Assembly (NCBI GenBank): GCA_027050205.1
Contig: JALUCS010000126.1
Location: forward strand, 1 to 64,000
DNA length: 64,000 nt
Origin: a candidate division WOR-3 bacterium
Lineage (GTDB): Bacteria > Hydrothermota > Hydrothermia > LBFQ01
Reading direction: 5' to 3'
The notes beneath the pieces are model-generated. The model did no database searches. It had not been told where the DNA came from and worked only from the letters and a program-made list of their open reading frames with translations. A program made the translations under genes and the position numbers. Below, in pieces: positions 10,769 through 52,687 of this stretch (positions are counted from its first letter, which is position 1; every line of letters starts with the position of its first letter).

Positions 10769-10794
10769 GATTGTTCCTATAAGATAGAACAATT
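10769..10794. repeat. 26-bp palindromic motif copy
   Basis: gattgttcct-ataaga-tagaacaatt. Confidence 0.75.
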
Positions 10795-10819
10795 GCGTAC
10801 GGCCGCCCTACGCCGCCCC

Positions 10820-10845
10820 TATTGCTCCGCTTAAGGAGAGCATCA
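10820..10845. repeat. 26-bp palindromic motif copy (weaker right arm)
   Basis: tattgctccg-cttaag-gagagcatca. Confidence 0.6.
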
Positions 10846-13197
10846 CCTCACTACGACGAACTTGCCCGTTGCCGTCCCCCTCTCCGTCATCACCACTACG
10901 AAGTACAGCCCTTCGGGTAGGTTGGAGATGTTCAGGCTCAACTCCGTCTCCCCTACGCTTATGTTCCTGGTCACCTTCTCCTCCCTTACGAGGTGGCCGG
11001 AGGCCGAGTATATGCGGATGGCCACGTAGTCGGCCGGGTAGGGACTCTCAACGACTAAGGTTATACGCCTGTGCCTGGACTTTGAGTAGGGGTTGGGATA
11101 GACCTTCGCCACCCTCATCCGTGGGCCTGTAGGCTCCACCTCAAACGGCTCGGCCGTAGCGAGGGCGTAGGCGTCGGGCATTCCGTACCCCGTCAGGTAG
11201 TTGGGCGTCGGATAGCCGGGGAGCTGGGAGGCTGTCTCAAGGAGCTTCCGCCGGAGCTTGGCGACGTCCCACGATGGATGGACCTCAAGGGCGAGGGCGA
11301 GGGCGCCCACCGTCAGGGGCGTGGAGTAGGAGGTCCCGGATACGCTCACGAGGGGGAAGGAGTCGTCCACCGCCACCACCGTGAAGGGGGCAGCCACCTC
11401 CGGCTTCACCCGGCCATCCGCGGAGGGGCCGAAGGCAGACCGGTTGGCCGGGAGCCACCTCCCGGAGACGGAGTCCCATATTACGCCGCTAACCGCCACC
11501 ATATCGTAGGCGTCGGCGGGGGCCGTAAGCGTTGTGTCCCCTACGAGGGGGTCGGGCAGGGGCCTGTTTCCGACGTTCCCCATGGCGGCGACCACCAAAA
11601 GGCCGTACTTGAGGGCCTGGGAGACCGCCCGTGAGGAGACGGCCGTCCGGCCGTCCATCATATCCTTCGTGTATCCGAGGTCCGCCCCGTAGCCCAGGCT
11701 GATGTTGGCTATCTGCACACCCCGACGCACCGCCCACTCCAACGCTGCTACGAGGAAGTCCTCCTCTATGCGGTTCTCCCACACCACCCCCGTATCCGTA
11801 CGGCCCACCTTCTCCGTCTTGGCGAGGTAGTAGGTCGCCCCCGGCGCCACCCCGATCAGCCTCCCCTCAACGTACCCGGCCAGGACGGAGAGGACGCGGG
11901 TACCGTGGTACCGGCCTATCCCGTACTCCGGGGCCTCCGCAACCGTGTCCCCCCTGGCCCGGAAGACCAACCTATCCCCGAAGAAGGTGGGTTTGTCGCA
12001 CGAGGTCCACCCGTAGGTGCCAAGGAGGTTGCCGAGGGTGTCGTACACCTCTATACGGTCGGGGGAGGGTACCGCCACCTCCGTACCGTTGAAGGCCACC
12101 TCCGTGAGCATAGGGGCGGAGGCTACGGGTCTCCCACCGACGAAGGCCGTATCGTTCCTGACGTAGGCCACCTTACCGCCGGCGTATACGGGACGGAAGC
12201 CGGGAAACAGGGGGGTGGTACCGCTGCGGGTCATCATATAGACCGTATCCCCGTCGGAGAAGAGTAGGGTATCCCCCTTTAGGTGCATCCCCCCGAAACC
12301 CTCTACCCTCTTACCCCTCCAGCACTCTATGGAGGATATTGCTCTATCGTAATAGCACAATTTTACGCTGTCCCCAGTGAAGGCCCCCAACGTGAGGGTG
12401 TCGGGTAGGGTGTCTAAGACGGCCATCTGGTAGCCGGTGAAGGTCCTTATGTCCTTTACAGTATCCTCCACCGTATCCACGGTGGCGAGGTGTAGGGTTC
12501 CGAAGCCGGAGGTCCATGCTACGAATATGCTGTCCCCAAGGAGGGCCAGCGAGGGGTTGTACTCGTACCCCATCTGGACGTTCCTAAGGCTCCACGAGCT
12601 GTCCTCGTTCAGGACGTACAGATAGAGGTTCCACGCCCGCGTGTTCGTTCCCTGTAGGGCCTTCTCGTCGGCACCGGAGTAGATGCAGAGGAAGGAGGAG
12701 GACAGGGGGAGGCAGTCGTAGGAGTGGACGTAGAAGGGTATGGGAACGGGGGGAGGGATCTCCCTGTCCTCCAACATCAGGCGGTCCCCACTGTTGAAGT
12801 CCATCTGACCGCCCACCTTAACGCCGAAGAGGGCGGGGTTGTTCAGGTCAAAGCCCGTGTCAAATATCCCGACCTTTACCCCCTTGCCGGTTATACCCAG
12901 CGAGTGGAGGGTGTCGGCCCTTACGGCCTCTACCTGCCGTTTGGACTCCCCGTAGGAGTAAGAGGAGATACCAATATTGCTACTGTTAAGCGGAACAATA
13001 TTCCCGGAGCGTTTCACCCTGTACGTAAGGACGGGTACCCCCTCCGGGTTGAGGCGGAAGCCCCTCGGACTCTTCCCTTCCGCGAACCAGTAGAAGGAGA
13101 AACGTTCGGTTAGGGTGGATTTGGTCCTCATATAGAGGGAGTAGGCCTCCGCGTAAGGTACGTCGCTCGCCCTAAGGGACACCCAAAGAGGTACCAT
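10843..13197 (-). CDS. S8 subtilisin-like serine peptidase with large insert and T9SS-like C-terminal domain
   Basis: Triad motifs GIFDTG, YHGT, SGTSYS; GRVKPEV; tail VYPNP...IYSASG...LPEGLYFV...KFVVVR. Start reset to ATG 13197 (TATAAT 7 nt upstream; removes overlap with divergent gene). Confidence 0.9.
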   Translation of the reverse strand: MVPLWVSLRASDVPYAEAYSLYMRTKSTLTERFSFYWFAEGKSPRGFRLNPEGVPVLTYRVKRSGNIVPLNSSNIGISSYSYGESKRQVEAVRADTLHSLGITGKGVKVGIFDTGFDLNNPALFGVKVGGQMDFNSGDRLMLEDREIPPPVPIPFYVHSYDCLPLSSSFLCIYSGADEKALQGTNTRAWNLYLYVLNEDSSWSLRNVQMGYEYNPSLALLGDSIFVAWTSGFGTLHLATVDTVEDTVKDIRTFTGYQMAVLDTLPDTLTLGAFTGDSVKLCYYDRAISSIECWRGKRVEGFGGMHLKGDTLLFSDGDTVYMMTRSGTTPLFPGFRPVYAGGKVAYVRNDTAFVGGRPVASAPMLTEVAFNGTEVAVPSPDRIEVYDTLGNLLGTYGWTSCDKPTFFGDRLVFRARGDTVAEAPEYGIGRYHGTRVLSVLAGYVEGRLIGVAPGATYYLAKTEKVGRTDTGVVWENRIEEDFLVAALEWAVRRGVQIANISLGYGADLGYTKDMMDGRTAVSSRAVSQALKYGLLVVAAMGNVGNRPLPDPLVGDTTLTAPADAYDMVAVSGVIWDSVSGRWLPANRSAFGPSADGRVKPEVAAPFTVVAVDDSFPLVSVSGTSYSTPLTVGALALALEVHPSWDVAKLRRKLLETASQLPGYPTPNYLTGYGMPDAYALATAEPFEVEPTGPRMRVAKVYPNPYSKSRHRRITLVVESPYPADYVAIRIYSASGHLVREEKVTRNISVGETELSLNISNLPEGLYFVVVMTERGTATGKFVVVR
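12337..12362. repeat. 26-bp palindromic motif copy inside S8 CDS
   Basis: tattgctcta-tcgtaa-tagcacaatt. Confidence 0.65.
12975..13000. repeat. 26-bp palindromic motif copy inside S8 CDS
   Basis: tattgctact-gttaag-cggaacaata. Confidence 0.7.
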
Positions 13198-13270
13198 AGA
13201 CGCTATTATATTTCCGGAGGGTAGTCGGAATACGTCCCCGTCCGTCCCCGCCGTATAATAGTGCGACCGT

Positions 13271-14368: not shown

Positions 14369-15092
14369 AGAGGCGGTGGTAGAGGGGCGTTAGCCTTGAG
14401 GGTAAGGTTAAGGCCACATCCACCAAGGCGTAGAGGGACAGGAGCTTGTGCCTTAATGTCAGGTCGGGGAGCATAACGGGTATCCTCGGTACGTGCATCC
14501 TACCGAAGGACCTTCGGCAAGAGGGACCGGCGAATCCCCAGCGGTACCCCACCTCTGCGGCTACGGATAGCACCTTCCTATTATATATATTAAAAGGATA
14601 GGCAACGGCGACCACCTCCTCACCGAGGAGGTCCTCAAGGTACTTCTTGGAGTACTCCAACTCGTAGCGGAGTTGCCGGTCGGGTAGGGTGGTCAGGGAA
14701 CGGTGGGAGACCGTGTGGGAGCCTACGAGCCAGCCGGAGCGGTGTAGTTCTATTATAGCGGAACGATCCATGTGCCTTACGGGTATACCGAAGTGAGCGT
14801 CCCACAGGTTCCGCTTGCCAACGAAGTCGGTGATGACGAAGACGGCTCCCTTTACACCCATCTCCTCCATTATCGGGAAGGCCCACCTATGGACCCCCTC
14901 AAGGGCGTCGTCAAAGGTCAGGAGGAAGGCGTCGTAGGGTAGGGGGAAGCGAAGGGCCTTGGGGTCCATAGGGCGAAAGCGGTTGAGGAGGAAGGAGAGG
15001 TGCCTTCGGAAGAACTTCGGGGGTACCCAGTTCCCCGAAAGCCTAAGGTAGGGGGAGACGTCGTGATAGGCGAAGACGAGGGGGTACCTCAC
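14346..15092 (-). CDS. Polysaccharide deacetylase (CE4)
   Basis: YH.V, LTFDDA, GSHTVSH, AYPF motifs. Confidence 0.9.
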   Translation of the reverse strand: MRYPLVFAYHDVSPYLRLSGNWVPPKFFRRHLSFLLNRFRPMDPKALRFPLPYDAFLLTFDDALEGVHRWAFPIMEEMGVKGAVFVITDFVGKRNLWDAHFGIPVRHMDRSAIIELHRSGWLVGSHTVSHRSLTTLPDRQLRYELEYSKKYLEDLLGEEVVAVAYPFNIYNRKVLSVAAEVGYRWGFAGPSCRRSFGRMHVPRIPVMLPDLTLRHKLLSLYALVDVALTLPSRLTPLYHRLFNALRRR

Positions 15093-16498: not shown

Positions 16499-17095
16499 AT
16501 GGGTACCGTATTGCTCCTATTAACCGTAGCAATACTTCTCCTCCTCGTCGGCGTACCCGTATACCTTATATATCTATATAACAACCTCGTCCGGAAGAGG
16601 CAGCTGGTAAAGGAAGCCTGGAGCGGCGTTGAGGTGCAGCTGAAGCGCAGGGCCGACCTCATCCCCTCGTTGGTAGAGGTCGTAAAGGGGTACGCCAAGC
16701 ACGAAAAGGAGATATTTGAGAAGATAGCCGAGGCGAGGGCGAAGAGCCTCGGAGTGGGGAGCATCGCCGAGAGGGGTAGGGCGGAGGGGGAGCTAACCCG
16801 TGCCTTGAAGAGCATAATAGCCCTCGCCGAGAAGTACCCGGACCTCAAGGCCAATAAGAACTTCCTTGAGCTGCAGAAGGCCTTAACGGACGTAGAGGAC
16901 GAGCTACAGCTCGCCCGCCGATACTACAACGCCACCGTGAGGGAGTACAACACGGCTATACAGATGTTCCCGGCCGTCCTCATAGCCAGGAGTATGGGCT
17001 TTACGCCGGAGGAGTACTTTGACCTTGACGTAGAGGCCTTCAGGAGCGGGGAGGACGCCGTTCAGCAGCGGAGGAGGCCGAAGATAGAGTTCTGA
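16499..17095 (+). CDS. lemA: LemA family protein
   Basis: YNNLV, QLKRRADLIP.LV..VKGYA.HE, YPDLKAN.NF, ARRYYN..V.EYN motifs. Confidence 0.95.
   Translation: MGTVLLLLTVAILLLLVGVPVYLIYLYNNLVRKRQLVKEAWSGVEVQLKRRADLIPSLVEVVKGYAKHEKEIFEKIAEARAKSLGVGSIAERGRAEGELTRALKSIIALAEKYPDLKANKNFLELQKALTDVEDELQLARRYYNATVREYNTAIQMFPAVLIARSMGFTPEEYFDLDVEAFRSGEDAVQQRRRPKIEF
16509..16534. repeat. 26-bp palindromic motif copy inside lemA
   Basis: tattgctcct-attaac-cgtagcaata. Confidence 0.75.
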
Positions 17096-17100
17096 AACGG

Positions 17101-17128
17101 GTTGCACATAAGGTATCTTATGTTAACT
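17101..17128 (+). other. dif: dif site (XerC/XerD chromosome dimer resolution)
   Basis: GTTGCACATAA-GGTATC-TTATGTTAACT; 9/11 and 10/11 identity to the E. coli dif arms GGTGCGCATAA and TTATGTTAAAT, 6-bp spacer, intergenic. Confidence 0.88.
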
Positions 17129-17763
17129 AACCTTTCAGGGAGGGACGGGGGCGGTCAAGAGACCTCTGCCCCTCCCTCCATCTACCGTTGGCATCAAACT
17201 TTCCGCAATCGCTCCGGCCCCTATTGTTCCGCTTTACAGAATCTACAACCCCCGACCCCGATTTAGCGAAGGGTTGGTCGCCCTGTCCCCTACCCTAACG
17301 CCGTTACCTATATGCCGTTTTAGGTACGTCTCCCGGACCCGTGGGGTTCCTAAGGTTCTACGGATTCGTAGATGAGAATACCGGTGCAGTCTTAGATCCA
17401 ACGTAACAGTCCTTGATGCGAATAAATCGCCCGTTGGAGGGCCGGGAAGTAATACCGTAGGGTTCAAACCTCGCCCAACCGCACTTTTATTCGTAGTACC
17501 CTACCCTAATTCAGAAACCTCCATCCAACGCCGTCGGGGAACATCCCCAAACTCCACGGGGCCGGCTTTCGTCAAGCATCAAGTTCCATACGACATAGCC
17601 CGAATCTTATCGGGGAAACCGGCAACAACACCCATGGGACCGCCCGCCGTTTGATAGGGACTCCTATTCGTCGGTTCCTACTTTGATCAAACTGGGATAA
17701 CCCAAGGGCGACTTCGGGGACGTCGTCTGTTCCCTTACGTACCGCTTAAGCGGATCTATGTGT

Positions 17764-17789
17764 TATTGATACGCTAAACCGGAACAATA
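17764..17789. repeat. 26-bp palindromic motif copy
   Basis: tattgatacg-ctaaac-cggaacaata. Confidence 0.7.
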
Positions 17790-17823: not shown

Positions 17824-17849
17824 TATTGCTCCTATTAAATAGAACAATA
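17824..17849. repeat. 26-bp palindromic motif copy
   Basis: tattgctcct-attaaa-tagaacaata. Confidence 0.8.
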
Positions 17850-17883: not shown

Positions 17884-19125
17884 GTGAGGGGCTTCGTACT
17901 CTACCTTATACCCGTCCTCGCACTCCTATACTCCCTCTCCCTACCCCCCGTAGGCCAGCACGACCATTCCCTCCTCCTGATACACCTGCAGGCCCTCGGC
18001 CTCCTGAAGTACTCCTCCCATCCCCCTACCCTACCCATTTTAGTTAGGGCGGTCTACGAAACCTTAGGGGCGGATTACCAGGTGGTTAGGCTCCTCGCCA
18101 TACTCTCCGCCTCCCTCCTCCCCCTTTCGGCCCTCCTCATAGGTAGTCGTCTCGGTAAGGGCGTAGGGCTGTGGGCCTACCTCCTGGCTCTAACGAGTCC
18201 CCTCTTCCTCATCTACGGAAAGGCTCCTCTGTACGCCCTCTTCGGTTTCTCCTTCGGTGCCTTCGCTCTCGCCCTCCATACGAGCGGGAGGCCTCTCCTG
18301 GCCAACCTCATATCTGCCGTCGCCCTAATCCTGGACTGGACCTCCATCCCCCTCGTCCTCCCCGTCCTCTACGATACCCTCAAAAGGCGAAGGCCTCTCC
18401 TCCTACTCTACCTCCCCACCCTCCCCATATACGCCCTGTGGGTGGCAGACTTCTCAACAGTAGCCGGCGGGGAGTTCTCCCAGAGGCTACCGTCCCCCCA
18501 ATCCCTCCTCCTGTTGGTGCCGGTGGTGGCGTTAAGATTGCTCCTATTTACCGGACCTATAACCCTCCTCGGCATCCTCCACCTCTCCATCCGCCGTACG
18601 AGGCTACCCCGCTTCCTCCTCCGGTACCTCTACCTACAGCTCGCCTTCGTACTCCTATGGGCGAACTTTTACGTTTATCATACCCCCTACCTCTTCAACC
18701 TCCTCCCCCTTTTGGCCGTAGCCGGGGCGTTGGGAGTTGTAAGGATGGGCGTTAGGCTCAAGGCTTCGCTATTAACCCTTTCCATCATCTACTCCGCTGC
18801 TCTCACCTTCCTCCTCCTCTATCCCTACAGGACGTTCGCCGCCTCGGATGTGGGTTGTATATTACTACGCTTAAGCGAATCAAAAGCGGGGGCGAGGTAC
18901 GTCCTCCCCGAAGGCGGCCGACCCCCGAAGTCCCTCAAACTCCTCCTCACCCTCCTACCCCCCGACGACTCCTCCCCTATAACCGTATCCTTCGGACCGA
19001 AAGGGAGACGCCCCATCGTGTTGTACGGCGATACCGTATCAATAACCGGCTACGGTACGGTCAGGTGCCGAGGGGATACGGGACGGATAGACCGACTATT
19101 ACTCCGCTTAAAAGGAATTAAGTAG
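17884..19125 (+). CDS. Polytopic membrane protein, possible GT-C (ArnT/PMT-like) glycosyltransferase
   Basis: HPP motif near N-terminus followed by RLL..L and many TM helices; TATAAT 9 nt before GTG. Confidence 0.5.
   Translation: MRGFVLYLIPVLALLYSLSLPPVGQHDHSLLLIHLQALGLLKYSSHPPTLPILVRAVYETLGADYQVVRLLAILSASLLPLSALLIGSRLGKGVGLWAYLLALTSPLFLIYGKAPLYALFGFSFGAFALALHTSGRPLLANLISAVALILDWTSIPLVLPVLYDTLKRRRPLLLLYLPTLPIYALWVADFSTVAGGEFSQRLPSPQSLLLLVPVVALRLLLFTGPITLLGILHLSIRRTRLPRFLLRYLYLQLAFVLLWANFYVYHTPYLFNLLPLLAVAGALGVVRMGVRLKASLLTLSIIYSAALTFLLLYPYRTFAASDVGCILLRLSESKAGARYVLPEGGRPPKSLKLLLTLLPPDDSSPITVSFGPKGRRPIVLYGDTVSITGYGTVRCRGDTGRIDRLLLRLKGIK
18536..18561. repeat. 26-bp palindromic motif copy inside CDS
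   Basis: gattgctcct-atttac-cggacctata. Confidence 0.55.
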
Positions 19126-31689: not shown

Positions 31690-34582
31690 CCGCTATCCTC
31701 CTTAGCAGGTTAAGGATGTCGTTTGCCCATTCAACCCTGTCCTCTATACCTGCCCCTTTGAGGACCTTGTAGAGCCTCCTGCGGAGGCCTCCCTCCTGTC
31801 GGGCGCTCTTACTCCAATAGGGGAACTCCTTCAGGGCCTCGTCTATACCGAGGGCGAGATCTTCGGAGGTATGGGGGTCCAACCCCTTGTGGAGCCGCAG
31901 CCACCACTTTACGGCGAAGGCACCGTTGGAGAGGTGGGTTTCCCCCATCTGCCTCTGGGCCTCCTTTATCTCCCTTACGAGTTTCTCCAGCTCCTTTAGG
32001 GCCTGCCTGCTGTTTATCTGCCTCTCCTCAAAGGCCTTCCTTATCCTCTCCGCCCTCTCCCCTATGGGTATGAGGAAAGGTTTCTCCTTCCCCTCCTCCG
32101 CCACCATCCGGGCTATGGTGTTGAGGAGGTTAAACATCCTGACGGTTTCGGGTTTGTGCCTGGCGGTTAGGAGGGACTCAAGGGTTTCGGGGGTTATCTC
32201 GTAGGTCTCTTTAAGGAGGTTTAAGGTTGGGGTACGGGTGTGCCTCTGTACGATTTCGGCTGTCTTTCTAAGGAAGGACTTATCAACATCAACCGAAGGC
32301 TCGTAGGCGCTTCGCAGGATCCTGTACATCTCAACGAGTTTCCTGTAGTCGTCCAAGAAGGGACGGAGGAAGGGGTCGGGGGATAGCACCTCGTAGAGTT
32401 CTTGGAGTTCGCGAAAGAACCTATAAAACTCCTCCCTCAAGGGTTTATCCTTGAAGCGTTGGAGGATGGCTTCGGCGACCCTGTCCGGTTCGTTGGGATC
32501 AAATACGGGTAGGTACTCCTCCCTCCCCACTCTTATGAGCTCCTCAAAGCGCTCCTTCAGGACGTCTATTCCCTCAACTATTCCCTTGATGTCCTCCGAG
32601 TCAAAGGCGAGGGCCTTTTCAAGGTTGTCAAATATGCCTACGAAGTCAATTATGAGTCCGTTGGTCTTCCTACGTCCGTCTTCGTCCTCGTACGGGCGAT
32701 TCACTCTGGCAATGGCTTGGAGGAGGACGTGGTCCCGCATGGGTTTGTCAAGGTACATAGCGTAAAGGATCGGGGCGTCGTATCCGGTCAGGAGCTTCTC
32801 CGTGACTATGAGAATCTTGGGGTTTTCGTCGGGCTTCCTGAAGGCCTTCCTTACGCGGGTCTCCTCCTCGTCGCTTAGGTGGTAGCGTTTCAGATGGGGA
32901 GGGTCGTTGTGGTTCCGGCTTATTACGACCTCGCTGTATTCAGGGGGCAGGTACCTGTCCAAAGCCTCCTTGTAGAGGACGCACGCCTCCCTATCCACGG
33001 CCACAAGGAAGGCCTTGTACCCCATAGGTTCAACGTTGCTTTTAAAGTGTTCGGCCACAAAACGGGCGATCTTCTCAACTCTTTCGCTGTTTTTGAGCAT
33101 ATTTTTGAGATTCACCGCCCTATCCAACACCCGGTTTATCTCCTCTATATCGGCCACACCCTCAAGGGCGGCGGCCTTCCAGAACTCCCTCTCCATCGTC
33201 TCCCTATCCACGACCAACTCGTTTGGGGCCATCTGGTAATGGAGGGGAACGGTGGTCCCATCCTCTATAGACTCCTTTATGGAGTACTTGTCCAGATAAC
33301 CCCTCGGAGGGTCATCCACACCGAAGACCTTGAAGGTACCCTTCCCCCTACTCGTCTTATCTATCGGTGTCCCGGTGAAACCTATAAACGTGGCGTTGGG
33401 AAGCGCCCCCATAAGGTAGTTTCCGAGGTCCCCGCCCGTTGATCTGTGAGCCTCGTCTATCAGGACGATGATGTTGGAGCGGGTGTTCAGGTTGGCGTCC
33501 GCTTTATCAAACTTATGGATCATAGAGACTATCAGGCCGCGGGTGTCCCTCTTGAGGAGTTCCCGGAGGTGTCTTTTGCTCTTGGCAACGTGGAGGTTTC
33601 CGAAACCGACGGCCTCAAGGTTCTGGAAGAGCTGCTGCTGGAGTTCGTTCCTGTCCACTATCATAAGGACGGTGGGGTTCTTGAAGCGGGGGTCCTCCAG
33701 TATAAGTCTGGCGGCGGTTATCATCGTGTAGGTCTTCCCGGAACCCTGTGTGTGCCATACGAGTCCCCTACGCTTTCCGCGGTCACTGGCCCTCCCTACG
33801 ACCTTTCCGACGGCCCTCATCTGATGGGGACGGAGGACCACCTTGGACAGCTCCCCGTCCCTCCGGACGAAGAGGATGTACCTGCCGAGGATTTCAAGGA
33901 TCCTCCTCCGGGATACGAAGGCCTTGACGAGGGTCTCAAAGTCCCCGGCCTGCTCGTCTCTGTAATTGAACAGGGCTTTACGGGAGAGGTTCCACGTGGG
34001 GCCGTAGAGGAAGCGGTGGAAGTCTGTAATTACGTATATTTGGCTCTGTACCAGAAGCTCCGGAGCCTCGTCGTGGTACCGTCTTATCTGCTCATGGGCC
34101 TCCCCTATGCCCTCAACCTTCGTAGGGGCCTTGGCCTCAAGGACCACAACGGGGATGCCGTTGACGAGGAAGACGATGTCAAGGCGAACGGTGGAGGTTC
34201 CACTGACGAAGCGGAACTCCTCGGTTATGTGGAATACGTTGTTCTCCGGAACCTCAAAGTCAATAAGGCGTACGTTCTTCTCCCTTTTCTCCTCCTCAAC
34301 GAATACGGTCTTAAGGCCCCTCAGGTACTCCCACACCTCGTAATTTCCTTCAACGTTGGGCCTCACCCTTACAAGTCTGTCTATCACCTCTTCGGCCTTC
34401 GTCCGGTTTACTATGGCAGTGGGGTTGAGTTTCTGAAGTTGCTCTATCAGAATGCTCCGCAGTACGGGACTACTCTCCCCTCCCCGTAGCCTAAGGGCCT
34501 CATCCGGAGGGAGGTACCTCCAACCCACCTCCTGGGTGTGGCGGATTATAGGTTCCTGAACGGTCTGGCGTTCGGAGAACAT
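31682..34582 (-). CDS. hsdR: Type I restriction endonuclease subunit R
   Basis: Nuclease motifs RLDIV..VNGIP...EAK and QI.RY; helicase motifs WHTQGSGKT, DEAHRS, FTGTP, LLTGYDAP, QAIARVNR. Confidence 0.97.
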   Translation of the reverse strand: MFSERQTVQEPIIRHTQEVGWRYLPPDEALRLRGGESSPVLRSILIEQLQKLNPTAIVNRTKAEEVIDRLVRVRPNVEGNYEVWEYLRGLKTVFVEEEKREKNVRLIDFEVPENNVFHITEEFRFVSGTSTVRLDIVFLVNGIPVVVLEAKAPTKVEGIGEAHEQIRRYHDEAPELLVQSQIYVITDFHRFLYGPTWNLSRKALFNYRDEQAGDFETLVKAFVSRRRILEILGRYILFVRRDGELSKVVLRPHQMRAVGKVVGRASDRGKRRGLVWHTQGSGKTYTMITAARLILEDPRFKNPTVLMIVDRNELQQQLFQNLEAVGFGNLHVAKSKRHLRELLKRDTRGLIVSMIHKFDKADANLNTRSNIIVLIDEAHRSTGGDLGNYLMGALPNATFIGFTGTPIDKTSRGKGTFKVFGVDDPPRGYLDKYSIKESIEDGTTVPLHYQMAPNELVVDRETMEREFWKAAALEGVADIEEINRVLDRAVNLKNMLKNSERVEKIARFVAEHFKSNVEPMGYKAFLVAVDREACVLYKEALDRYLPPEYSEVVISRNHNDPPHLKRYHLSDEEETRVRKAFRKPDENPKILIVTEKLLTGYDAPILYAMYLDKPMRDHVLLQAIARVNRPYEDEDGRRKTNGLIIDFVGIFDNLEKALAFDSEDIKGIVEGIDVLKERFEELIRVGREEYLPVFDPNEPDRVAEAILQRFKDKPLREEFYRFFRELQELYEVLSPDPFLRPFLDDYRKLVEMYRILRSAYEPSVDVDKSFLRKTAEIVQRHTRTPTLNLLKETYEITPETLESLLTARHKPETVRMFNLLNTIARMVAEEGKEKPFLIPIGERAERIRKAFEERQINSRQALKELEKLVREIKEAQRQMGETHLSNGAFAVKWWLRLHKGLDPHTSEDLALGIDEALKEFPYWSKSARQEGGLRRRLYKVLKGAGIEDRVEWANDILNLLRRIADE

Positions 34583-34587
34583 GATCT

Positions 34588-35448
34588 TTACCCCTTCTTA
34601 TGCCTTGTGTTATCAAATAAGTTTGGCTCATTTTCTCGCATTTTTAAATAAATATTGGTGTATGGTCTCCCTTCTTCATCAGGGAAACCCCATAAATTAA
34701 ATTTCCTACGCCATCTATATTGATCTTTTCTGACCCATCGCACTATAAATGACGCTAATTCTCTTTTTGCTGGTTTTCTCACTTTATTTAATAAAGCTGC
34801 TTGAGTTGAACCTATCAATAAATCAGTAAACTGTAGTAAATCATCATCTGAAGAGTCTTTAGGCACCACTTTTAATATTACTTCAGGATAATTCCCTTTC
34901 TCCTCCTTCTGTAGAATGCTATCATATCTTGCTCGTTGTTGTATGTATTTCTCAAAATTATCAATTATACTACGATTCTTTTTATCTGTTATAAAAGTTA
35001 TCTCTAATCTATCATATTCGTTTTCCTGAAGTATATGCCAATTAATACCAGCTTTTAACGCCATAGCAGTAAAACGATTGTACTCGTGAAAATCTTTTGG
35101 AAATCTGCTATGTTCGTAAGCACTACTATAACGATCTACAATGAGACAAGAAAAATTTGCAATCTCTGACAAACGTTGGCGAAATTCTATCATCCATTTT
35201 TTAGCTATTCTTGCTTTTGCACCATATTTACCTGAAAAGGATTTAGGTAATTCCTTAAAATGAATTTCTCTAAAGTAGTTTTCCTCCTCCCTTACCCTAT
35301 ACAAAATTTTGCGTGCAATATCAATATCATGACTTTTTATAAATAGCAGACCTATAATTAACCATCGTTTCTCTGGGAGACTTTCATCATGAAAAACATG
35401 ATACTTCCCTACTTTCACGATTTCATTGCCCCAAAAATCTCGTTTCAT
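34588..35448 (-). CDS. DUF3800-like protein (RNase H-like fold), AT-rich
   Basis: N-terminal VFHDES, EIHF.E, C-terminal LQFTD; much lower GC than flanks. Confidence 0.7.
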   Translation of the reverse strand: MKRDFWGNEIVKVGKYHVFHDESLPEKRWLIIGLLFIKSHDIDIARKILYRVREEENYFREIHFKELPKSFSGKYGAKARIAKKWMIEFRQRLSEIANFSCLIVDRYSSAYEHSRFPKDFHEYNRFTAMALKAGINWHILQENEYDRLEITFITDKKNRSIIDNFEKYIQQRARYDSILQKEEKGNYPEVILKVVPKDSSDDDLLQFTDLLIGSTQAALLNKVRKPAKRELASFIVRWVRKDQYRWRRKFNLWGFPDEEGRPYTNIYLKMRENEPNLFDNTRHKKG

Positions 35449-35617
35449 CCTAACTTTTGATCAAATAATATCCCCACAATCTCCTCCCCTCATCGTCCTC
35501 CATCTCCTCAATCACCCCCGGAACCAAAATCTCCAACATCGCTACCGCTATTATACAGCCGAACCGTCGCCCTCAAACTGCCTCAAAGCTCTTCGCCTAT
35601 GAATATGCGGCATAAAC

Positions 35618-36838
35618 CTATCGTTGGAGAGTGGAAAATATATCTTCACAACCCTTAACCCTCCTTTCATAAAATTCTCTCTCAAAATATTCATCCTTAA
35701 GGTCATTTATAGGAACATATACTTCAACTGGAATACTTGCGTTTTTAAGGTAATTTACCATCACAGGACCAACCTGCTCCCATTTCAATCCCCCAAGACC
35801 ACACCCAAGGGCGGGGAAGGCTATTGATTTAACCCCTTCCCTCCTGTAAAACTTCAAAAACCACTTCAAACCCTCACATATCATCTTGAGATTGCTCTTT
35901 TCCTTCCAGTGCCTTTTTGTAGGAAAGAATAGGAACCACCTTTCGCCGTTAAGGCTCTCCGGCTTATAAAGGTAGGGCCTCCCTGGTCTTAATATTTTCC
36001 TTTTTACGATGTTTTGATACACCAGAAAGGCTGCCGGGTACATGTACTTAAAACGGCTTGCCAAACCCTTTCCCATAACACCGACAGTGTTGACGCTTAT
36101 AGTTAATGTTTGCATCTCGCTATCAAACATATCACCTTCCACTATGTAAAGGTTTGGATAAATTTCCACTTTTCTGCGAGGTTCAAAGAATAAATCGGGG
36201 TCAACAATAATTTCTATACCTTTAGGTAATTTTCCCACCATTCGTAAAACTTTTTTCTTCATATCTTCGTTAGGTACATAAATAGCCCGTATGTACTTTT
36301 TAGGCACCCTCTTGGGGATTAAGACCTCGGACTGTAGAAAGGTCTTAGGGAATAAGTACTCCACAGATGGGAATGGGAGCTTGCTTTTCTTAATAAAAGG
36401 TTTTATGTTTATTATGGCTTCACTTGAATACCAATCCCGTATATCTCGCACCTTCTCAAAGAGTTTTGTTAGATATACATCTCCAGAATCCAATAGAATT
36501 GAATAATCACTCGCAGCGTTACCTATGGAAACTTTACTTCCACTTCTTTCGGATACTGTTGCATCTACGCCTATCACGAGTAGTTTATTCTTGCGCTTTT
36601 TTGATAGTCTATACATCATAGCGTTCCTTGGATAGACGTAGAGATTCGCATATTTACTTAAACCCTTTTTTCTTCTTTTTTCAACTATCCCCTCATCTGC
36701 TATATCTATAAAATTCAAACCAAGTTTTTCAACCTCATCACGGCTCAAAATACCTGAGCGAAGTATAGATTCCAGATTCTCAATTCCCGTAATATAGTAC
36801 AGTTCCCTCCTTCGGTCTCGCCTTCTTGCCTTTCTCAC
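35618..36838 (-). CDS. DarT (DUF4433) DNA ADP-ribosyltransferase fused to DarG-type macrodomain
   Basis: N-half YYITGIENL.SIL..GILS, DIA...I...R, PRNAMMY, GNAA, QSEVL; C-half GDMF...VNTVGVMGKGLA..FK, FPTKRHW, SIAFPALGCGLGGL.W. Confidence 0.9.
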   Translation of the reverse strand: MRKARRRDRRRELYYITGIENLESILRSGILSRDEVEKLGLNFIDIADEGIVEKRRKKGLSKYANLYVYPRNAMMYRLSKKRKNKLLVIGVDATVSERSGSKVSIGNAASDYSILLDSGDVYLTKLFEKVRDIRDWYSSEAIINIKPFIKKSKLPFPSVEYLFPKTFLQSEVLIPKRVPKKYIRAIYVPNEDMKKKVLRMVGKLPKGIEIIVDPDLFFEPRRKVEIYPNLYIVEGDMFDSEMQTLTISVNTVGVMGKGLASRFKYMYPAAFLVYQNIVKRKILRPGRPYLYKPESLNGERWFLFFPTKRHWKEKSNLKMICEGLKWFLKFYRREGVKSIAFPALGCGLGGLKWEQVGPVMVNYLKNASIPVEVYVPINDLKDEYFEREFYERRVKGCEDIFSTLQR

Positions 36839-38130
36839 ACCAGCCCCTCCATGTTGTGTGCTAACTTACCCACCAACTCCTTAGGTATCCTCCTCTTCGC
36901 TGTCATCAAGTCGTTGAGCAGAGCTTTAAAAACCTTTTCCAACGCCTCCGCTCTCCTCCTCTCGGCCTCTATTTTGTCATCTACGGCCTTCAGTATCTCG
37001 GCTATGCGTTTCTGCTCGTGGAGAGGGGGAAGAACTAAAACCTGTTCTCGTAATATGCGATAATGACGATTATAACCTCTACTTGGAATTTTAAGATTTA
37101 GTAAGGCATAATAAAGGAAAAGAGGGAAGTATTTTTCGGTATTAGGTATTAAAATTTTAGTACCATCAGCTCCACGTACAAAGGGAAAATCTACGTACTT
37201 AAATATACGAGTATGATCTCCAAAAACTATCACCGGAAGCGGTCCATAATAGACATCATCTTCGTTATTCCAGTATCCAGCGATTAGATTCTGCCCCTGA
37301 TCAACAATAGGGAATCGCCCCACTGGGAGGTAATTTTGCTGTTTAACTTTGCTAGTTTTTATTCTTTTTTTAAGTATAGCGTCCTCAAACCTCACCACCT
37401 CCCAGTGTTCCGGTATATCTCCCACCTCCGTTTCCTTCAACTTCACTTTATCAACCTCACCGAGAGGCACAGGGCCGTAGGTGAATAGGTGCTTCATCAA
37501 AGACTTCTTGAGTTCCTTGAGAGCCTTTATAACCTCTTCCGTCTTCTCCTTCGCCTCCTGCACAGCCCTTAAGATGTAGGCGATGGCCTTCTGCTCCGGA
37601 ATCGGGGGGAGGAGGATGGGAAGAGTTTTTATCCGAGACAAAGCCAATTTAGGTTGCGAAGTTTTAGTAGTTTGTGATCTTATGTACATCTGCCCCATTG
37701 GACTAGCCAAGAAAAATATAAGAAAATTTTGGTCAAGGGATTGAGACAAAATCACAATTCTTGCGGCATTTTCTGTAAGGTGCGCCCCATCCAATTCATC
37801 CGGAATTCTTCCAACAATACCTATAGTTCCTGCAATTGAAATATAAACATCCGATTTTTTAATATGATAGCGCTGCAAAAGGCGATGTTGGTCCTCAGTT
37901 AGGTATTTCAAGTTATCCGTAGTTATTGAGAAATTCCTAAAATTTACCACACGGATATACGGATATTTAGTAGGACGCTCTGAAAATTTTTGCCCTTTAG
38001 GTAAGCGTTTCCCACCTTTAACCTCTACCACCTCCCCCAACCTCACCACCTCCCACTCCTCCGGTAAAGGCCCCAACTCCGTCATTCTGTAGCCGGGCGG
38101 TACATCATCCGTATTTGCTACTCTGCTCAT
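36835..38130 (-). CDS. hsdS: Type I R-M specificity subunit S
   Basis: Two TRDs bounded by PEEWEVVRL / PEHWEVVRF and PP..EQ..IA..L repeats; LKKSLM..LFT central conserved region. Confidence 0.95.
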   Translation of the reverse strand: MSRVANTDDVPPGYRMTELGPLPEEWEVVRLGEVVEVKGGKRLPKGQKFSERPTKYPYIRVVNFRNFSITTDNLKYLTEDQHRLLQRYHIKKSDVYISIAGTIGIVGRIPDELDGAHLTENAARIVILSQSLDQNFLIFFLASPMGQMYIRSQTTKTSQPKLALSRIKTLPILLPPIPEQKAIAYILRAVQEAKEKTEEVIKALKELKKSLMKHLFTYGPVPLGEVDKVKLKETEVGDIPEHWEVVRFEDAILKKRIKTSKVKQQNYLPVGRFPIVDQGQNLIAGYWNNEDDVYYGPLPVIVFGDHTRIFKYVDFPFVRGADGTKILIPNTEKYFPLFLYYALLNLKIPSRGYNRHYRILREQVLVLPPLHEQKRIAEILKAVDDKIEAERRRAEALEKVFKALLNDLMTAKRRIPKELVGKLAHNMEGLV

Positions 38131-38138
38131 ACGGACAC

Positions 38139-38181
38139 CTCCTCCTTATCCACACTGCGGATTATAAAGGCGGAGGGCGTT
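38139..38181. repeat. 43-bp direct repeat, copy 1
   Basis: ctcctccttatccacactgcggattataaaggcggagggcgtt, identical to 38820-38862. Confidence 0.95.
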
Positions 38182-38539
38182 ATAGATCATCCTGCCATCC
38201 CTCGTTCCATATCACACCTTCAAGCTTACGCTCAAGTTCGGGTATGTCATCCCTCACCGTCGCCCATAACACCCCAACATCCACACCGAAATAGAAGTGT
38301 ATCAACTTATCCCTCGTCCTGGCTATTATGCTCCACTCAATTTCAGGATATTTTTCCTTCAATTCGGAAGAAACCTTCTTACTCGCTTCCCCCAGAATCT
38401 CCAAATTTCTGACAACGGCGTCTATAGTCCTCTCGTCCCTTAGAAAGTCCTTAAATCGCATACCCTCGGTATACTCCAAGATCTTCCTACACGCTATCAG
38501 CATATCAAGGACAAATTCCCTATCTCCCCTTTTATACAT
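38180..38539 (-). CDS. HepT-like HEPN ribonuclease toxin (DUF86)
   Basis: DAVVRNLEILGEA, RDKLIH (R-X4-H), YFGVD. Confidence 0.92.
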   Translation of the reverse strand: MYKRGDREFVLDMLIACRKILEYTEGMRFKDFLRDERTIDAVVRNLEILGEASKKVSSELKEKYPEIEWSIIARTRDKLIHFYFGVDVGVLWATVRDDIPELERKLEGVIWNEGWQDDL

Positions 38540-38834
38540 ACTCCAGTTCCTTCTTTATCGCTTCTCTTACGTGTCTTATGCGTATGTTCTCCACTCCGTA
38601 AGGCGTTAGTAGGTCCACTTCCCTTTTGAACAACCTCTCAAGGAAATCGGCGAGGCCTATGAAATCCTTCAAATTTCCCCTGCGGTCTTCAAACTCAACA
38701 ACAATATCAATATCGCTATCCTCCCCCGCCTCCCCTCGCACTACGGAGCCGAAGATCCCTATCCTCTTAACCCCGAACTTCCTTATCTCCTCGTAATTCT
38801 CCCTTATCCGCCTTATGATCTCCTCCTTATCCAC
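38532..38834 (-). CDS. MntA-like minimal nucleotidyltransferase antitoxin
   Basis: FGS..RG.....SDID..V motif, VDL. Confidence 0.92.
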   Translation of the reverse strand: MDKEEIIRRIRENYEEIRKFGVKRIGIFGSVVRGEAGEDSDIDIVVEFEDRRGNLKDFIGLADFLERLFKREVDLLTPYGVENIRIRHVREAIKKELEYV

Positions 38835-38862
38835 ACTGCGGATTATAAAGGCGGAGGGCGTT
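38820..38862. repeat. 43-bp direct repeat, copy 2
   Basis: Identical to 38139-38181; carries TATAAT and the GTG start of the MNT gene. Confidence 0.95.
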
Positions 38863-39074
38863 CTACAGGGGAGGGTGGTGTCCGATATATGTCCGTTAAT
38901 AGGTTAGAATGTAGTATCTCTTATTTTTCTCTGCTGTGGCCTTAGATAGTCCTTTTACAAATATCTAAAAATAATTCCAATAATTGAAATTTACAATTTC
39001 TAGGCTTTTTTGGATACCTCTCTTAAACTCTATCATCCGATTTTAATTTTTAGAACACCAAATGTTAAATATTC

Positions 39075-40106
39075 TTAGAATGGTAAATTATTGGAATCAA
39101 AGTCGGGTTCATCAAGAATTCCTGGATTTAAAAGGTCATTTAGCAGCTCAAGGTCACTGGAATCTATTTTATCCTCATTACCTTTGATTATTTTTAATAT
39201 AAATTCCATAACATCGGTATCATTAATTATCCAATATATCTGATTATTTGATACATATGCAGCCGCGATTGCTCTTATCTGATCCTCTGAAAATTCATCA
39301 TATTTATTTAATTTTGCTATTATTTCATGGGTTTCAGCAAACGATCTACTATTTAATAATCTCTTTATTAAGATTTCTTTTTCTAGCTCACTTGCTAATT
39401 TAATATTTGGGAAATTATCCCTGAAAAACTGTGATAGGCTTTTATAGAATATTATATTTGAATTTTTCTTTTCCTGCCATTCCTCAAATAAAAAAGTGTT
39501 AAAACTATCCTTATCAATAGGAGAAATAAAGTCCTTATCATCTGATATAAAATATAAGTTTTCACCATTAGGCACTTTTTCAAGTAAAACTTCCCAATTT
39601 AAAGCATCCCCCAAACTTCCTTTTTTTCCTGGAGGATTACCTCTTTCTATACGTATACGTGCTTTTTCTATAATTTCATCATCCGTTTTCAAAATTTCGG
39701 ATAGTTCAAAAATTTGCTGTATTATATAATCTGCTTTAAGATCTTTATTTCTAATATCTTCACGAATATTCAGTATCAGCTCGTTATATAATTTTTCACA
39801 TTCCTTAAGTAATTTTATAAGCACTTTATACTCCTTATAATCCTTGCAATATTGAGGAAATTCCAACTTGAATTTTTTATTTTGCTTACGAAGCTTGTCG
39901 AATGAAGAAGCTATTTTGTTTTCTCTGTTTCTATAAAATTCTTGAACGACCTGTTCCGGTAGAAATAATTTTATTTCCCCTTCACTACTTTCTAATAATG
40001 CTATTAATTTTTTAAGCTCCTCTAAATCTTCGCTGGTGAAATGATAAAAGGCTAGGAAAATATTTGTATCTATAAATAGATTTATCCTACCCCTTTCATC
40101 TTCCAT
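39075..40106 (-). CDS. PIN-like domain protein (DUF4935-type), very AT-rich
   Basis: LFIDTN, QV..EF.RN, GDA..WE.LL, FIS.D.DF acidic PIN residues. Confidence 0.8.
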   Translation of the reverse strand: MEDERGRINLFIDTNIFLAFYHFTSEDLEELKKLIALLESSEGEIKLFLPEQVVQEFYRNRENKIASSFDKLRKQNKKFKLEFPQYCKDYKEYKVLIKLLKECEKLYNELILNIREDIRNKDLKADYIIQQIFELSEILKTDDEIIEKARIRIERGNPPGKKGSLGDALNWEVLLEKVPNGENLYFISDDKDFISPIDKDSFNTFLFEEWQEKKNSNIIFYKSLSQFFRDNFPNIKLASELEKEILIKRLLNSRSFAETHEIIAKLNKYDEFSEDQIRAIAAAYVSNNQIYWIINDTDVMEFILKIIKGNEDKIDSSDLELLNDLLNPGILDEPDFDSNNLPF

Positions 40107-40144
40107 GTCTCACCAACTATTATATCCCTGAAGCACTTCCAATT

Positions 40145-40552
40145 TCATCTGAGAACCACATAAACGTAATAGGGTGGTTTCTCCTTGATGTCGCGTGGTT
40201 TCTCAATGCCAACATCGCCCTCGTCCAGGATATCCATCAGAATGCTTTCGGCATAGTACCGGATAAGTTCGTCTTCAACCTCGTGGGCATAGCGTAGACT
40301 GGTCGTCCTATAAACCACCACGGCCTTATCAAACTCCCCCGCATATCGGGGAAGCTCCTCCTCCGGGGATGATGTCCGGCCTACGTACATCTGAAGGTAA
40401 AGGTTAGAATTTATAAGCCGGGTGATGCGACGTTTTATCTTCGGGAGGACCTCTTTAGGACGGCCGGTATAGATGGAGTAAATCGTCGGTATGTATCTTG
40501 TGCTTGCAAAGGCTATGAGGATGGCGAGAAATTCTTCAAACGTCAGCTCCAT
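40145..40552 (-). CDS. Hypothetical protein, possible circularly permuted GIY-YIG
   Basis: MYVGRT, A..VE..LI.YY, C-terminal YYVYV; start reset to ATG 40552 (TATAAT 6 nt upstream). Confidence 0.55.
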   Translation of the reverse strand: MELTFEEFLAILIAFASTRYIPTIYSIYTGRPKEVLPKIKRRITRLINSNLYLQMYVGRTSSPEEELPRYAGEFDKAVVVYRTTSLRYAHEVEDELIRYYAESILMDILDEGDVGIEKPRDIKEKPPYYVYVVLR

Positions 40553-40600: not shown

Positions 40601-40626
40601 TATTGCTCCGGTATACCGGAGCAATA
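40601..40626. repeat. 26-bp palindromic motif copy (perfect palindrome)
   Basis: tattgctccg-gtatac-cggagcaata. Confidence 0.85.
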
Positions 40627-50599: not shown

Positions 50600-50602
50600 C
50601 CC

Positions 50603-52615
50603 TCAAAGGTTCCCGTAGGCCGCCTTCAGAATCTCCAACAGGAGCCTCCCCTTCCCCTCCCTTAAGGCGCGGTCTATGACCTCCTCACCCTTCAAGGCAG
50701 AGAGGAGCATGACCTCAAACGGAATCTCCCTCTCCTCATCGTCCTCCTCCTCTACCGCCATCTCCTCCAGGAGGCCGAGTTCTTCAAGGATGCCCTCCGG
50801 GCCCACGTTCTCCTCCGAAAGGCGGTCCAGGGCGTACGCCCATCCCCGTATCGCCCCCGTCATCAGTAGGTTGTATAAGTATTCCGAAAAGGACCACAGG
50901 GGCCTGATCACCTTCTCCCCCTTCCTCCATATCACCATCGGGTAGGTCTCATCGTCCACGTCCAACCGCACGAGGGCGACCTCGTCCTCAAAGGGGGAGT
51001 CAAAAACCCTCATCTTCCGATAACCTCTGGGTTTCCTCCCGAAGTCGGGGACGTCCCCCTCCTCTCCCACCAGGGCCTCAACGGGCAGTATCCGGGAGGA
51101 CCCCACCCTGCCTATCCCCTCTATCCCATAGGAGAAGGTCAGGCCGTTGCACACCCTGTAGAAGTCCATCAGGTAGTCCGGGAGACTTACACCGAACCTC
51201 TCCTCCGCCTCCCTCGCCATCTCCCTCAACCTGTCCTCGGAAACGGGAGGGTTCACCTCAAGCCTTACGTCTATCCCGTCGGATACGTCCTTCAGCCTCC
51301 GGGCGAGGTCCTTGAGCCTTACGAGGAAGCCCAGGGCGTAGTCGCCGTAGTAGTGAAAGACGGCACCCTTCGTTATGAAGTTGCGTCTGGTTGCGAGGAT
51401 GACGTCGCTCCTTTTCATAAACTGCGCCCCGGTGAAGTCGGCATCTCCCTTGAAGCGGGTTTCCTCTATCTCAAGGTGTCCCTTAAAAATGGCTCCTCTG
51501 AAGGACACGTGGGAGAGGAACTTGCTGTATCTCAGAGCCGCCCACTCCCCTTCGCACACGCACCCGTCAAACGTCGCCAACCCCTTGAAGGTGGAGTTGC
51601 TTATCTCCAGATTCCTTATACGGGAGCCGGACAGGTCAAAGATGCCGCCAACCTTGAGCCTGAAGAGGTGCAGGTGGTGGGAGAAGTGCGCCCCACGGAT
51701 GAGTACGTCCGAGCCGAAGGTGGCCTCATCAAAGCCGGAGTACAACCGTATGGACGCCCCGTCAAGGCGGAAGGGTCCCCGGAAGGAGGCTTCGTCCATG
51801 TTGAGGTTGGTTCTTACGTCTATACCGGATAGGTCCGCTTCGGCCCGGAACTCGGCTTCGGTGAAATCGCCCACATTAAAGGTGGCACGGACGAAGTCCG
51901 CCCTACCCAAGAACTTCGTCCCCATAAAGAGACCCCTCTCTTTAAAGACGCTCTCCCGGAAGGAGACCCCTCCCTCAAAGACGACCTGCGAGAAGTCCGC
52001 CCTCGTGAGGAAGCGGGTACGCCTGAAGGAGGCGAAACCGGAGAAGGTACTCTCCTCAAAGTAGGCGAGGTCGTGGAACACCACGTCGTCAAATATCGCC
52101 CTGCCCAGAAACTTGACCTGCGAAGTGTGGAGCCACGTCCGGAAGGTAGCCCCCTCAAAGATAACGCTCCCGTTGAAGACCGTCTCCTCCCCCTCCTCCC
52201 AGAATGGGATACCCGTACTGCTCTTGGGGAAGTCAAAGCCGGAGAAATCGTATGCCCTACCGAGGAGTATCCCCCACCGTTCCTCGTACCTGTTCGCCCA
52301 GAAGGGGAGGTTGAGGTACTCCCTAAGTGGTCTCCAGAACTCCCTGTCGCTGAACTCCTTGTCCCATATATCGGCCTCCTTGGACGTGTGGAAGACGCAC
52401 TTGCCCCTCTCCGAGGGCGGTATGGCTTCCAGCTCCTCCCTCCCAGCCCACGCGAAGCCGATGGCGTCCCTAAGGCACCCCATGACGGAGCAGATGGACG
52501 AGTCAAGGCCGTAGTCCCTGGCGACTTCCCACGCCTCCGGGTTCTCCCGTACGTTCCTGGCGTGGTGGTCGTACCGGTACTTCCTCCAGGTCCTCTCGTT
52601 GAAGATCAGTCGCAT
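50603..52615 (-). CDS. Pentapeptide-repeat protein with C-terminal SMI1/KNR4 domain
   Basis: More than 20 F...A.F repeats; E...GV.LP..L.DFY..CNG SMI1/KNR4 signature; N-terminal C...C...C.FH. Confidence 0.8.
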   Translation of the reverse strand: MRLIFNERTWRKYRYDHHARNVRENPEAWEVARDYGLDSSICSVMGCLRDAIGFAWAGREELEAIPPSERGKCVFHTSKEADIWDKEFSDREFWRPLREYLNLPFWANRYEERWGILLGRAYDFSGFDFPKSSTGIPFWEEGEETVFNGSVIFEGATFRTWLHTSQVKFLGRAIFDDVVFHDLAYFEESTFSGFASFRRTRFLTRADFSQVVFEGGVSFRESVFKERGLFMGTKFLGRADFVRATFNVGDFTEAEFRAEADLSGIDVRTNLNMDEASFRGPFRLDGASIRLYSGFDEATFGSDVLIRGAHFSHHLHLFRLKVGGIFDLSGSRIRNLEISNSTFKGLATFDGCVCEGEWAALRYSKFLSHVSFRGAIFKGHLEIEETRFKGDADFTGAQFMKRSDVILATRRNFITKGAVFHYYGDYALGFLVRLKDLARRLKDVSDGIDVRLEVNPPVSEDRLREMAREAEERFGVSLPDYLMDFYRVCNGLTFSYGIEGIGRVGSSRILPVEALVGEEGDVPDFGRKPRGYRKMRVFDSPFEDEVALVRLDVDDETYPMVIWRKGEKVIRPLWSFSEYLYNLLMTGAIRGWAYALDRLSEENVGPEGILEELGLLEEMAVEEEDDEEREIPFEVMLLSALKGEEVIDRALREGKGRLLLEILKAAYGNL

Positions 52616-52661
52616 AGTGGGATTGTAAGGGGGCTTCGGAGCGAAGCGAGAATGCGGACCC

Positions 52662-52687
52662 TATTGCTCCGCTATAATAGAGCAATT
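52662..52687. repeat. 26-bp palindromic motif copy
   Basis: tattgctccg-ctataa-tagagcaatt. Confidence 0.8.

Follow-up and report, generated by a model that had tools for sequence, protein, structure and literature searches.

In the 64,000-nucleotide stretch of DNA analysed here (the window), which belongs to a 2.05-Mb genome that is 93.5% complete (G000) and, like all the genomes compared, a fragmented draft, copies of a 26-bp palindrome are crowded around dif, and the question raised by this locus is what such a family of repeats does there. The original prediction listed ten clear copies and six weaker or half copies and proposed that they bind an unnamed dimeric chromosome-organising or division-coupling protein. 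All 16 positions read as described, and the ten clear copies fit the consensus. dif itself, at the centre of the array (17101..17128, forward strand), consists of a XerC arm (GTTGCACATAA), a 6-bp spacer (GGTATC) and a XerD arm (TTATGTTAACT), a pattern that has a single match in the whole genome. The polarity of GGGNAGGG, which we take to be the KOPS motif, was 21:1 on the left of dif and 18:40 on its right (Fisher 1e-7). The dif site is genuine: KOPS points towards it from both sides and switches polarity there, as it also does in the relatives G002 and G004; six other dif loci showed no significant switch, and GC skew near dif is weak.

Anatomy of the array in the window

To the left of dif, an intergenic copy at 10769..10794 (28.2 bits) is the partner of a copy at 10820..10845 (17.5 bits) that falls on the stop codon of an S8 peptidase gene, and this pair is present at the same gene junction in G002, G004 and G006. 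The S8 peptidase gene, which encodes a T9SS-type tail (10843..13197, reverse strand), contains two further copies, at 12337..12362, whose score was equalled by none of 20,000 synonymous resamples, and at 12975..13000, which is also found in G002 and G004. A weaker copy (14743..14768; 25.0 bits) lies within a polysaccharide deacetylase gene, and another copy, 592 bp left of dif, within lemA (copy, 16509..16534; gene, 16499..17095, forward strand); the lemA copy is kept in G002, G004, G005 and G006 and missing from G001 and G003. To the right of dif, a weaker copy ~120 bp away (17222..17247) is followed by two partnered intergenic copies, at 17764..17789 and at 17824..17849, the latter with 30.0 bits and 723 bp from dif. 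Next comes a gene for a membrane protein without Pfam family (17884..19125, forward strand), which holds a clear copy at 18536..18561, weak ones at 18860..18885 (16.6 bits) and, near its end, at 19097..19122 (19.5 bits), and a doubtful half copy at 19019..19044. As predicted, eight of the ten clear copies lie near dif, within 6.4 kb. The other two are the strongest, and both are placed upstream of start codons: the copy at 40601..40626, 23.5 kb from dif on the edge of a low-GC defence island, is a perfect palindrome, and that at 52662..52687 (31.2 bits), 35.6 kb from dif, stands in tandem with a weak copy 31 bp away (52693..52718; 14.5 bits). They precede ATGs at 40552 and 52615 by 49 and 47 bp, respectively, as had been noted. 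Of the 16 listed copies, eight altogether lie between genes, three of these as pairs.

The palindrome had been described as a 10-6-10 repeat with a free spacer. The refined consensus is TWTTGYTC-YRD-TWWA-HYR-GARCAAWA, in which position 12 is T at 87% of sites (order-wide matrix) and the centre is TWWA, so that the 6-bp spacer is constrained. A pyrimidine-purine step occupies positions 9-10 in 121 of the 156 half-sites, CG being preferred in the GC-rich genus and TA in the AT-rich genera. The distance between the arms is likewise specific. When ATTGYTC-Nx-GARCAAT was searched with up to two mismatches, x=10 gave 12 matches, ten of them on the window's contig, and the other spacers from x=6 to 15 gave one to six scattered matches each. 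Adjacent copies are frequently 25-64 bp apart.

Distribution in the genome and among relatives

A matrix built from the ten clear copies gave 18 matches of at least 14 bits in the 2.05-Mb genome; the top 12 lie on the window's contig, and the best match elsewhere reached 16.4 bits. When each copy was held out in turn, nine of the ten outscored all positions outside this contig, the exception being the 12337 copy, which was outscored by three positions. A foreign matrix, made of 48 sites from other genomes (local GC background, threshold 13 bits), gave 20 matches of at least 13 bits in G000, the top 15 all within the window, and none in the reversed genome used as control. By this foreign matrix the weaker copies at 14743, 17222, 18860, 19097 and 52693 were upheld with at least 13 bits, whereas the half copy at 19019 fell below 13 bits. 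A scan covering 1.50 of the ~1.6 Mb of the relative G017 yielded seven top matches of 18.6-25.9 bits, compared to a maximum of 16.9 bits in the reversed control. Three contigs account for these seven: the one that carries dif, a second that is syntenic with G018's dif contig, and a third that has them in its first 15 kb. In sister genomes the genes of the second and third border dif, and we infer that the three contigs are joined. Copies are thus not spread over the genome, either in G000 or in G017.

To compare relatives, dif loci were taken from 17 of the 18 genomes of the same order (no dif was found in G015) and from 19 of 22 genomes of other orders (all except G028, G033 and G039), some of the latter as short as 3.6-11 kb. 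With an order-wide matrix at 14 bits, sites were found beside dif in 15 of the 17 same-order relatives, and no site was found on the dif contig of G003 or G012; the same 15 loci were positive with matrices from which the genome's own genus had been left out. In G015, five sites were found on one contig, and the genes of that contig are neighbours of dif in sister genomes. Among the dif loci of other orders, 17 of 19 had no site and two had one borderline match, when reversed controls gave four. A stricter pattern scanned across the phylum matched 11 of 18 genomes of the order and none of 42 from the other orders of its class. In other classes it gave single matches in 17 of 182 genomes (seven for the control), and the 14 of these 17 that were inspected showed no array and none at a credible dif; scans of sequence collections gave 69 and 41 matches, which were scattered. 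In a de novo dyad search the motif was recovered from G000 and, weakly, from G002, but not from the AT-rich G008 and G013; G003, G012 and 17 other-order loci yielded nothing clear. Because the search missed a known motif in G008 and G013, G003, G012 and the other-order loci may well harbour other motifs.

Site density depends on the distance from dif. Pooled over 18 genomes, the number of sites per 10 kb fell from 8.3 in the first kb on either side of dif to 2.5-2.7 at 1-7 kb and to 0.3-0.6 farther out, with zero at all distances in the reversed control; like the dif-locus and in-gene counts, these figures come from matrices partly trained on the sites scored and from kin that are not independent. 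In absolute terms, the 79 sites divide into 29 in 35 kb (less than 1 kb from dif), 42 in 167 kb (1-7 kb) and eight in 207 kb (beyond). A copy was present within 1 kb on both sides of dif at nine of 16 site-bearing dif loci. The palindrome tracks dif across genera that differ in the gene content of the dif region. These results show that distance from dif sets where the sites lie; as a rule each side has a copy at 0.6-1 kb.

Selection on the sites and candidate readers

Four clear copies had been reported inside coding sequence, with atypical codons. This count holds for the clear copies, and is larger when the weak ones at 14743, 18860 and 19097 are included. The in-gene copies indeed make use of codons that are rare in this genome (TTA 2%, AGA 3%, GCA 4%, AAT 5%), and for five of the window's in-CDS copies the observed score was never attained in 20,000 synonymous resamples. 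Across 16 genomes, 45 in-CDS sites were counted within 7 kb of dif, compared to a mean of 5.2 and a maximum of 13 in within-gene synonymous shuffles, in line with the excess that had been predicted. A total of 48 of the 79 sites fall in ORFs of 15 families, or 47 of 79 in 14 families once the 40601 copy, which lies in a spurious upstream extension, is subtracted; the families include trpS, aspS, uvrB, lemA and glycosyltransferases (names partly read from the sequences). The synonymous controls show that the sites are kept by selection on the DNA sequence, even within genes.

The main copy in the membrane-protein gene occupies different codons in G000 and in G002 and G004, where the equivalent sits 13 alignment columns further on. 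G003 keeps the order S8, wza, deacetylase, pspA, lemA, dif, yet is without any site. Judged from the alignments, the shifting of in-gene copies and the loss in G003 represent binding-site turnover, not protein constraint. All in all, the palindromes are very probably a protein-bound landmark of the terminus, and they are best read as landmarks on the chromosomes of a single WOR-3 (Candidatus Hydrothermia) order of uncultured and heat-loving bacteria. Close homologues of proteins from a same-order genome carry the names WOR-3 and Candidatus Hydrothermia in their source records. From these dimer-type sites we infer a dimeric reader protein, as the original prediction had proposed; neither an even spread over the genome, nor fixed promoter positions, nor an in-gene frequency at the level of synonymous controls, the outcomes it had named against itself, was found.

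Which protein might read the palindromes was addressed by searching for chromosome-handling genes and for proteins that follow the motif. FtsK was found in five of five genomes and XerC/D are present, and GyrA/ParC is represented by one locus in each of the five. The SMC hinge was found in none of 41 genomes and ScpA and MukB in none of five. MatP (PF06303) was not found in G000 by a search that detected the E. coli positive control; RTP was not found in G000, nor Tus in any of five genomes. The gene order pheT-zauP-like-zapA(-like)-rny occurs in G017 and G000. Pfam ZapA was detected in 25 of 41 genomes, yet in none of the 12 of G000's family, and the syntenic zapA-like ORF of G000 aligns weakly.

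The best lead, and a weak one, is a MerR-type protein of G000 (contig C114, 12761-13099), which is single, small and basic, ends in a short C-terminal helix and lacks a metal site; it is built like Caulobacter ZapT, and on this analogy it could be the reader, doubtful as we consider this. With an occurrence of 38 in 41 genomes, the protein extends to orders that lack the motif, and two motif-bearing genera have sharply different versions of its recognition helix. In G003 the gene aligns at 64% with its first 30 codons unaligned, compared to 71-75% for full-length alignments in G001, G002, G004 and G006; a control gene gave 69% in both G003 and G001. No DNA match to the gene was found in the site-bearing G005. 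The gene follows dprA in G000 and stands between plsY and a CoA-binding gene in G017 (two genomes).

None of the reader candidates tested tracks the motif, and every one is also present in G003, which has no sites. Rejected candidates include the 135-aa GIY-YIG-like ORF downstream of the 40601 copy (40145..40552, reverse strand), which is patchy (5 of 41 genomes); a PadR-like protein, whose sole match in G000 is weak and ArsR-like and which is also in G003 and in other orders; a 115-aa basic protein encoded behind rpsG (18 of 19 genomes of the order, two of 22 others, also G003; no Atlas match); and an acidic 104-aa GIY-like protein (18 of 19 of the order, also G003). A 164-aa protein of no assigned family, TetR and a tandem winged-helix gene are all present in G003, and a ParB-domain gene that adjoins dif in one genus has no counterpart in G000. 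Subtraction of G000 against G017 started from 879 reciprocal best hits, of which 492 were small, 386 had no outgroup match and 315 were soluble; 300 of the 315 were scanned with Pfam (15 in ribosomal gene clusters were omitted), 69 were rescanned at E 0.01, and 221 of 290 G017 ORFs without a G000 match were also scanned. No protein tracking the motif emerged against this partial outgroup set, which amounts to only 1.4 Mb of scattered loci, so that the subtraction is incomplete. G003, a genome of the same genus that has lost all sites, offers a natural subtraction for naming the reader, and the consensus is a ready bait for it.

Possible roles at the terminus and known systems

We lean towards a role in tethering the dif region for segregation by FtsK/XerCD, by analogy with MatP and ZapT, which work via ZapB and ZauP-ZapA. 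A candidate homodimer would read both TWTTGYTC half-sites, which are separated by 1.5 helical turns, and might bend the A/T centre where the pyrimidine-purine steps flank it, and the 25-64 bp between adjacent copies would permit side-by-side binding. The bound protein could then hold the last-separating 15-kb stretch at the division site, and FtsK and XerCD would complete unlinking at dif. This final step of separation would carry more weight here because no SMC or MukB was found and there is only one GyrA/ParC gene.

The palindromes could alternatively be accessory sites for dimer resolution, at which a host factor, or XerC/XerD bound without recombining, as at XDS, shapes or licenses the synapse or recruits gyrase for decatenation. 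The density maximum within 1 kb of dif and the single GyrA/ParC gene would suit such a role, as would the copy in G016 that overlaps the XerC arm of dif. We nevertheless regard it as unlikely, given that the palindromes are not dif-like (the XerD arm was found in 0 of 79 at up to two mismatches and in 10 of 79 at three), that many copies lie several kb from dif and that G003 has dif but no palindromes. Conversely, neither arm of dif fits the motif matrix better than its own shuffles.

RTP sites have a two-dimer arrangement, and the tandem copies 25-31 bp apart resemble it. This raises the prospect of a replication fork trap, in which a dimer bound to the palindromes would delay forks and make them meet at dif, in the manner of RTP and Tus. 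Sites on both sides of dif in most genomes are consistent with a trap, and in 24 of 38 orthology groups the half-site farther from dif is the stronger one (Wilcoxon p=0.027). This asymmetry is weak by a sign test (p=0.14), however, and is not attributable to any single position; a symmetric site confers no polarity, and neither RTP in G000 nor Tus in five genomes was found. We give this reading little chance.

An ordinary transcription-factor regulon, the alternative named in the original prediction, would explain the dimer-type operator architecture, the intergenic half of the listed copies and the position of the two strongest upstream of ATGs. It is largely refuted. The majority of sites lie within genes, neighbouring genes vary between genera while the distance from dif is kept, and no strong site was found near any regulator gene or elsewhere in the 2 Mb. 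Near-identical perfect sites to the 40601 copy occur in G002 and G004 next to different genes, so that relatives do not have the same genes downstream of their perfect far copies, and the ORF that follows 40601 is patchy. Since 14 gene families host the sites, which use rare codons and shift position inside genes, a regulon is very improbable.

Recombination or integration sites, or relics of a mobile element with a preference for the terminus, are brought to mind by the arm-spacer-arm appearance and by the perfect copies in G000 and G002, which lie next to restriction or defence genes and at breaks in synteny. Against this, the central 6 bp differ in 15 of the 16 copies, no common flanks were found, and the copies are formed from in-frame host codons and arise at new positions; G000 has only two tyrosine recombinases, and viral contigs gave 0 motif matches. 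Such an origin is highly improbable. Finally, RNA hairpins or a compositional artefact are scarcely credible, even though the 40601 copy can fold as a perfect stem: the arms fit the consensus independently, without covariation beyond it (0.509 compared to 0.478 expected, sd 0.018, P=0.06), as is typical of double-stranded protein sites and unlike RNA stems, neither Rfam nor a terminator scan gave a match at the sites, and the same motif is shared by genomes of 25-57% GC.

We return to a terminus landmark read by a dimeric protein. To our knowledge, sequence-specific organisers of the terminus exist in few lineages, namely MatP, XerD with XDS, ZapT (no consensus) and two fork traps, and we know of none with a defined site that is not tied to SMC-type complexes or to fork arrest. 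A defined, selected site in a deep-branching group with no detected condensin would therefore imply a different role at dif. We tentatively raise the possibility that the palindromes represent a third, independently evolved terminus system, in which a 26-bp array bracketing dif organises final unlinking without SMC, MukBEF, MatP, Tus, RTP or a separate topoisomerase IV. Dense palindromes at dif, kept even within genes, point to a candidate protein for the last step of chromosome separation.

RTP/Ter and Tus/Ter sites flank the terminus and some lie within genes, both of which are also true of the palindromes; Ter sites are polar, whereas the palindromes are near-symmetric, and RTP and Tus were not found. 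The palindromes also differ from the sites of tyrosine recombinases, with 15 different spacers in 16 copies and TTAT at the spacer edge in 0 of 79, and from LexA, HrcA and HspR operators by a 10-bp gap and by not being genome-wide. That the motif is not matS, parS or a LexA box was borne out by scans with the site consensuses: the matS 13-mer and the CIRCE, HAIR and TGTTC-N4-GAACA boxes had 0 exact matches in G000, and the one copy of the 16-bp parS consensus in the genome lies on another contig (C93).

As for ZapT of Caulobacter, it is presented in excerpts of PMC7188993 as a MerR-type terminus binder that has no consensus and binds over 0.9 Mb, mostly within ORFs, with its gene behind ihfA. 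The ZapT-ZauP-ZapA system has a possible parallel here, in that there is one small MerR protein along with a zauP-like/zapA pair; unlike zapT, the merR-type gene is not behind ihfA in G000 or G017, and its protein does not track the motif. The XDS of B. subtilis are, by the partial accounts in PMC11840125 and PMC11894783, dif-like and unload SMC. The palindromes share with XDS the presence of a few extra sites around dif and, going by that description, differ in not being dif-like and in that SMC and ScpA were not found (PMC11840125, PMC11894783). matS sites are spread over 800 kb and read by a dimer, with MatP linked to the divisome via ZapB-ZapA, in the extracts of PMC7858052. The term matS-like is apt for placement and behaviour, the palindromes being confined to the terminus and independent of genes, but not for scale or machinery: judged against these extracts, the sites are 26 bp long rather than a 13-mer and lie mostly within ~7 kb of dif, in a zone of ~15 kb with few outliers rather than 800 kb, and MatP and MukB were not found (PMC7858052). 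No terminus motif in WOR-3 was found in the literature, as searched by titles and abstract openings with few subscription journals covered. The site family is apparently undescribed, matS- or XDS-like in its placement and outside each of the known systems.

Segregation machinery and small proteins of the order

Chromosome segregation in the class of the window's host, a candidate division WOR-3 bacterium, seems to proceed without condensin and topoisomerase IV, since no SMC hinge was detected in any of the 41 genomes from the same and other orders, neither ScpA nor MukB was found in five genomes, and each of five genomes showed a single GyrA/ParC locus. In G017, a genome of the order, the gyrA frame (records L393/L394) extends to 1045 aa and its Pfam match is split by an insertion, possibly an intein.

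Two small proteins are typical of the order. A highly conserved basic protein of 114 aa that belongs to no known family (L262:1474-1815), encoded behind rpsL-rpsG, is almost restricted to the order and is possibly ribosome-associated. The other, of 104 aa (L381:1492-1803), shows likeness to a nuclease-dead GIY-YIG domain and was present in 18 of the 19 genomes of the order; outside it, the protein was not clearly found.

Consensus matches in other phyla

Matches to the consensus of the 26-bp palindrome were also seen elsewhere. In a Desulfitobacteriaceae record (L334, 786-813 and 1499-1524), an intragenic perfect match lies ∼700 bp from a Firmicutes-type dif, with lexA nearby, and the ortholog of the match-bearing gene in another record retains the perfect match (L300:1499-1524). 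Because each of these two genomes contains only 2 matches, neither carries an array. A match in a low-GC Bacilli record (L322:1470-1524) directly adjoins a dif-like sequence, and that genome holds 2 matches separated by 21.6 kb. Reversed controls of the scan for dif-like sequences gave no matches in 110 loci. The near-perfect palindrome with the same arm type found between divergent genes in Gemmatimonadota (L297, L299 and L302) is probably an operator unrelated to the 26-bp site.

Surroundings of dif in the window and in relatives

In G016, the XerC arm of dif shares bases with one of the palindrome copies (L096:4537-4580). A ParB-domain gene immediately adjoins dif in G014 and G018 (L098:10302-11093), and a gene of this type is present in G015 too. 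The nusG-rplK-rplA-rpoB cluster of G009 occupies an unusual position for such genes, 11-17 kb from dif (L089:13858-19998).

Window positions 31396-40552 form a low-GC defence island encoding type I hsdR and hsdS, DUF3800, a DarT-macro domain fusion, a HEPN/nucleotidyltransferase pair, a PIN protein and a GIY-YIG-like ORF; hsdM was not found among its scanned ORFs. Elsewhere in the window genome, near-identical genes for a 185-aa Uma2-like nuclease form tandem arrays on contigs C49, C73, C97, C104 and C122.

At the window's left end, pheT is split, with one part at 1-1365 and the other on contig C72, and no overlap of the two ends was present to confirm the join. This arrangement would place a zauP-like gene, two zapA-like ORFs and rny ∼18 kb from dif.
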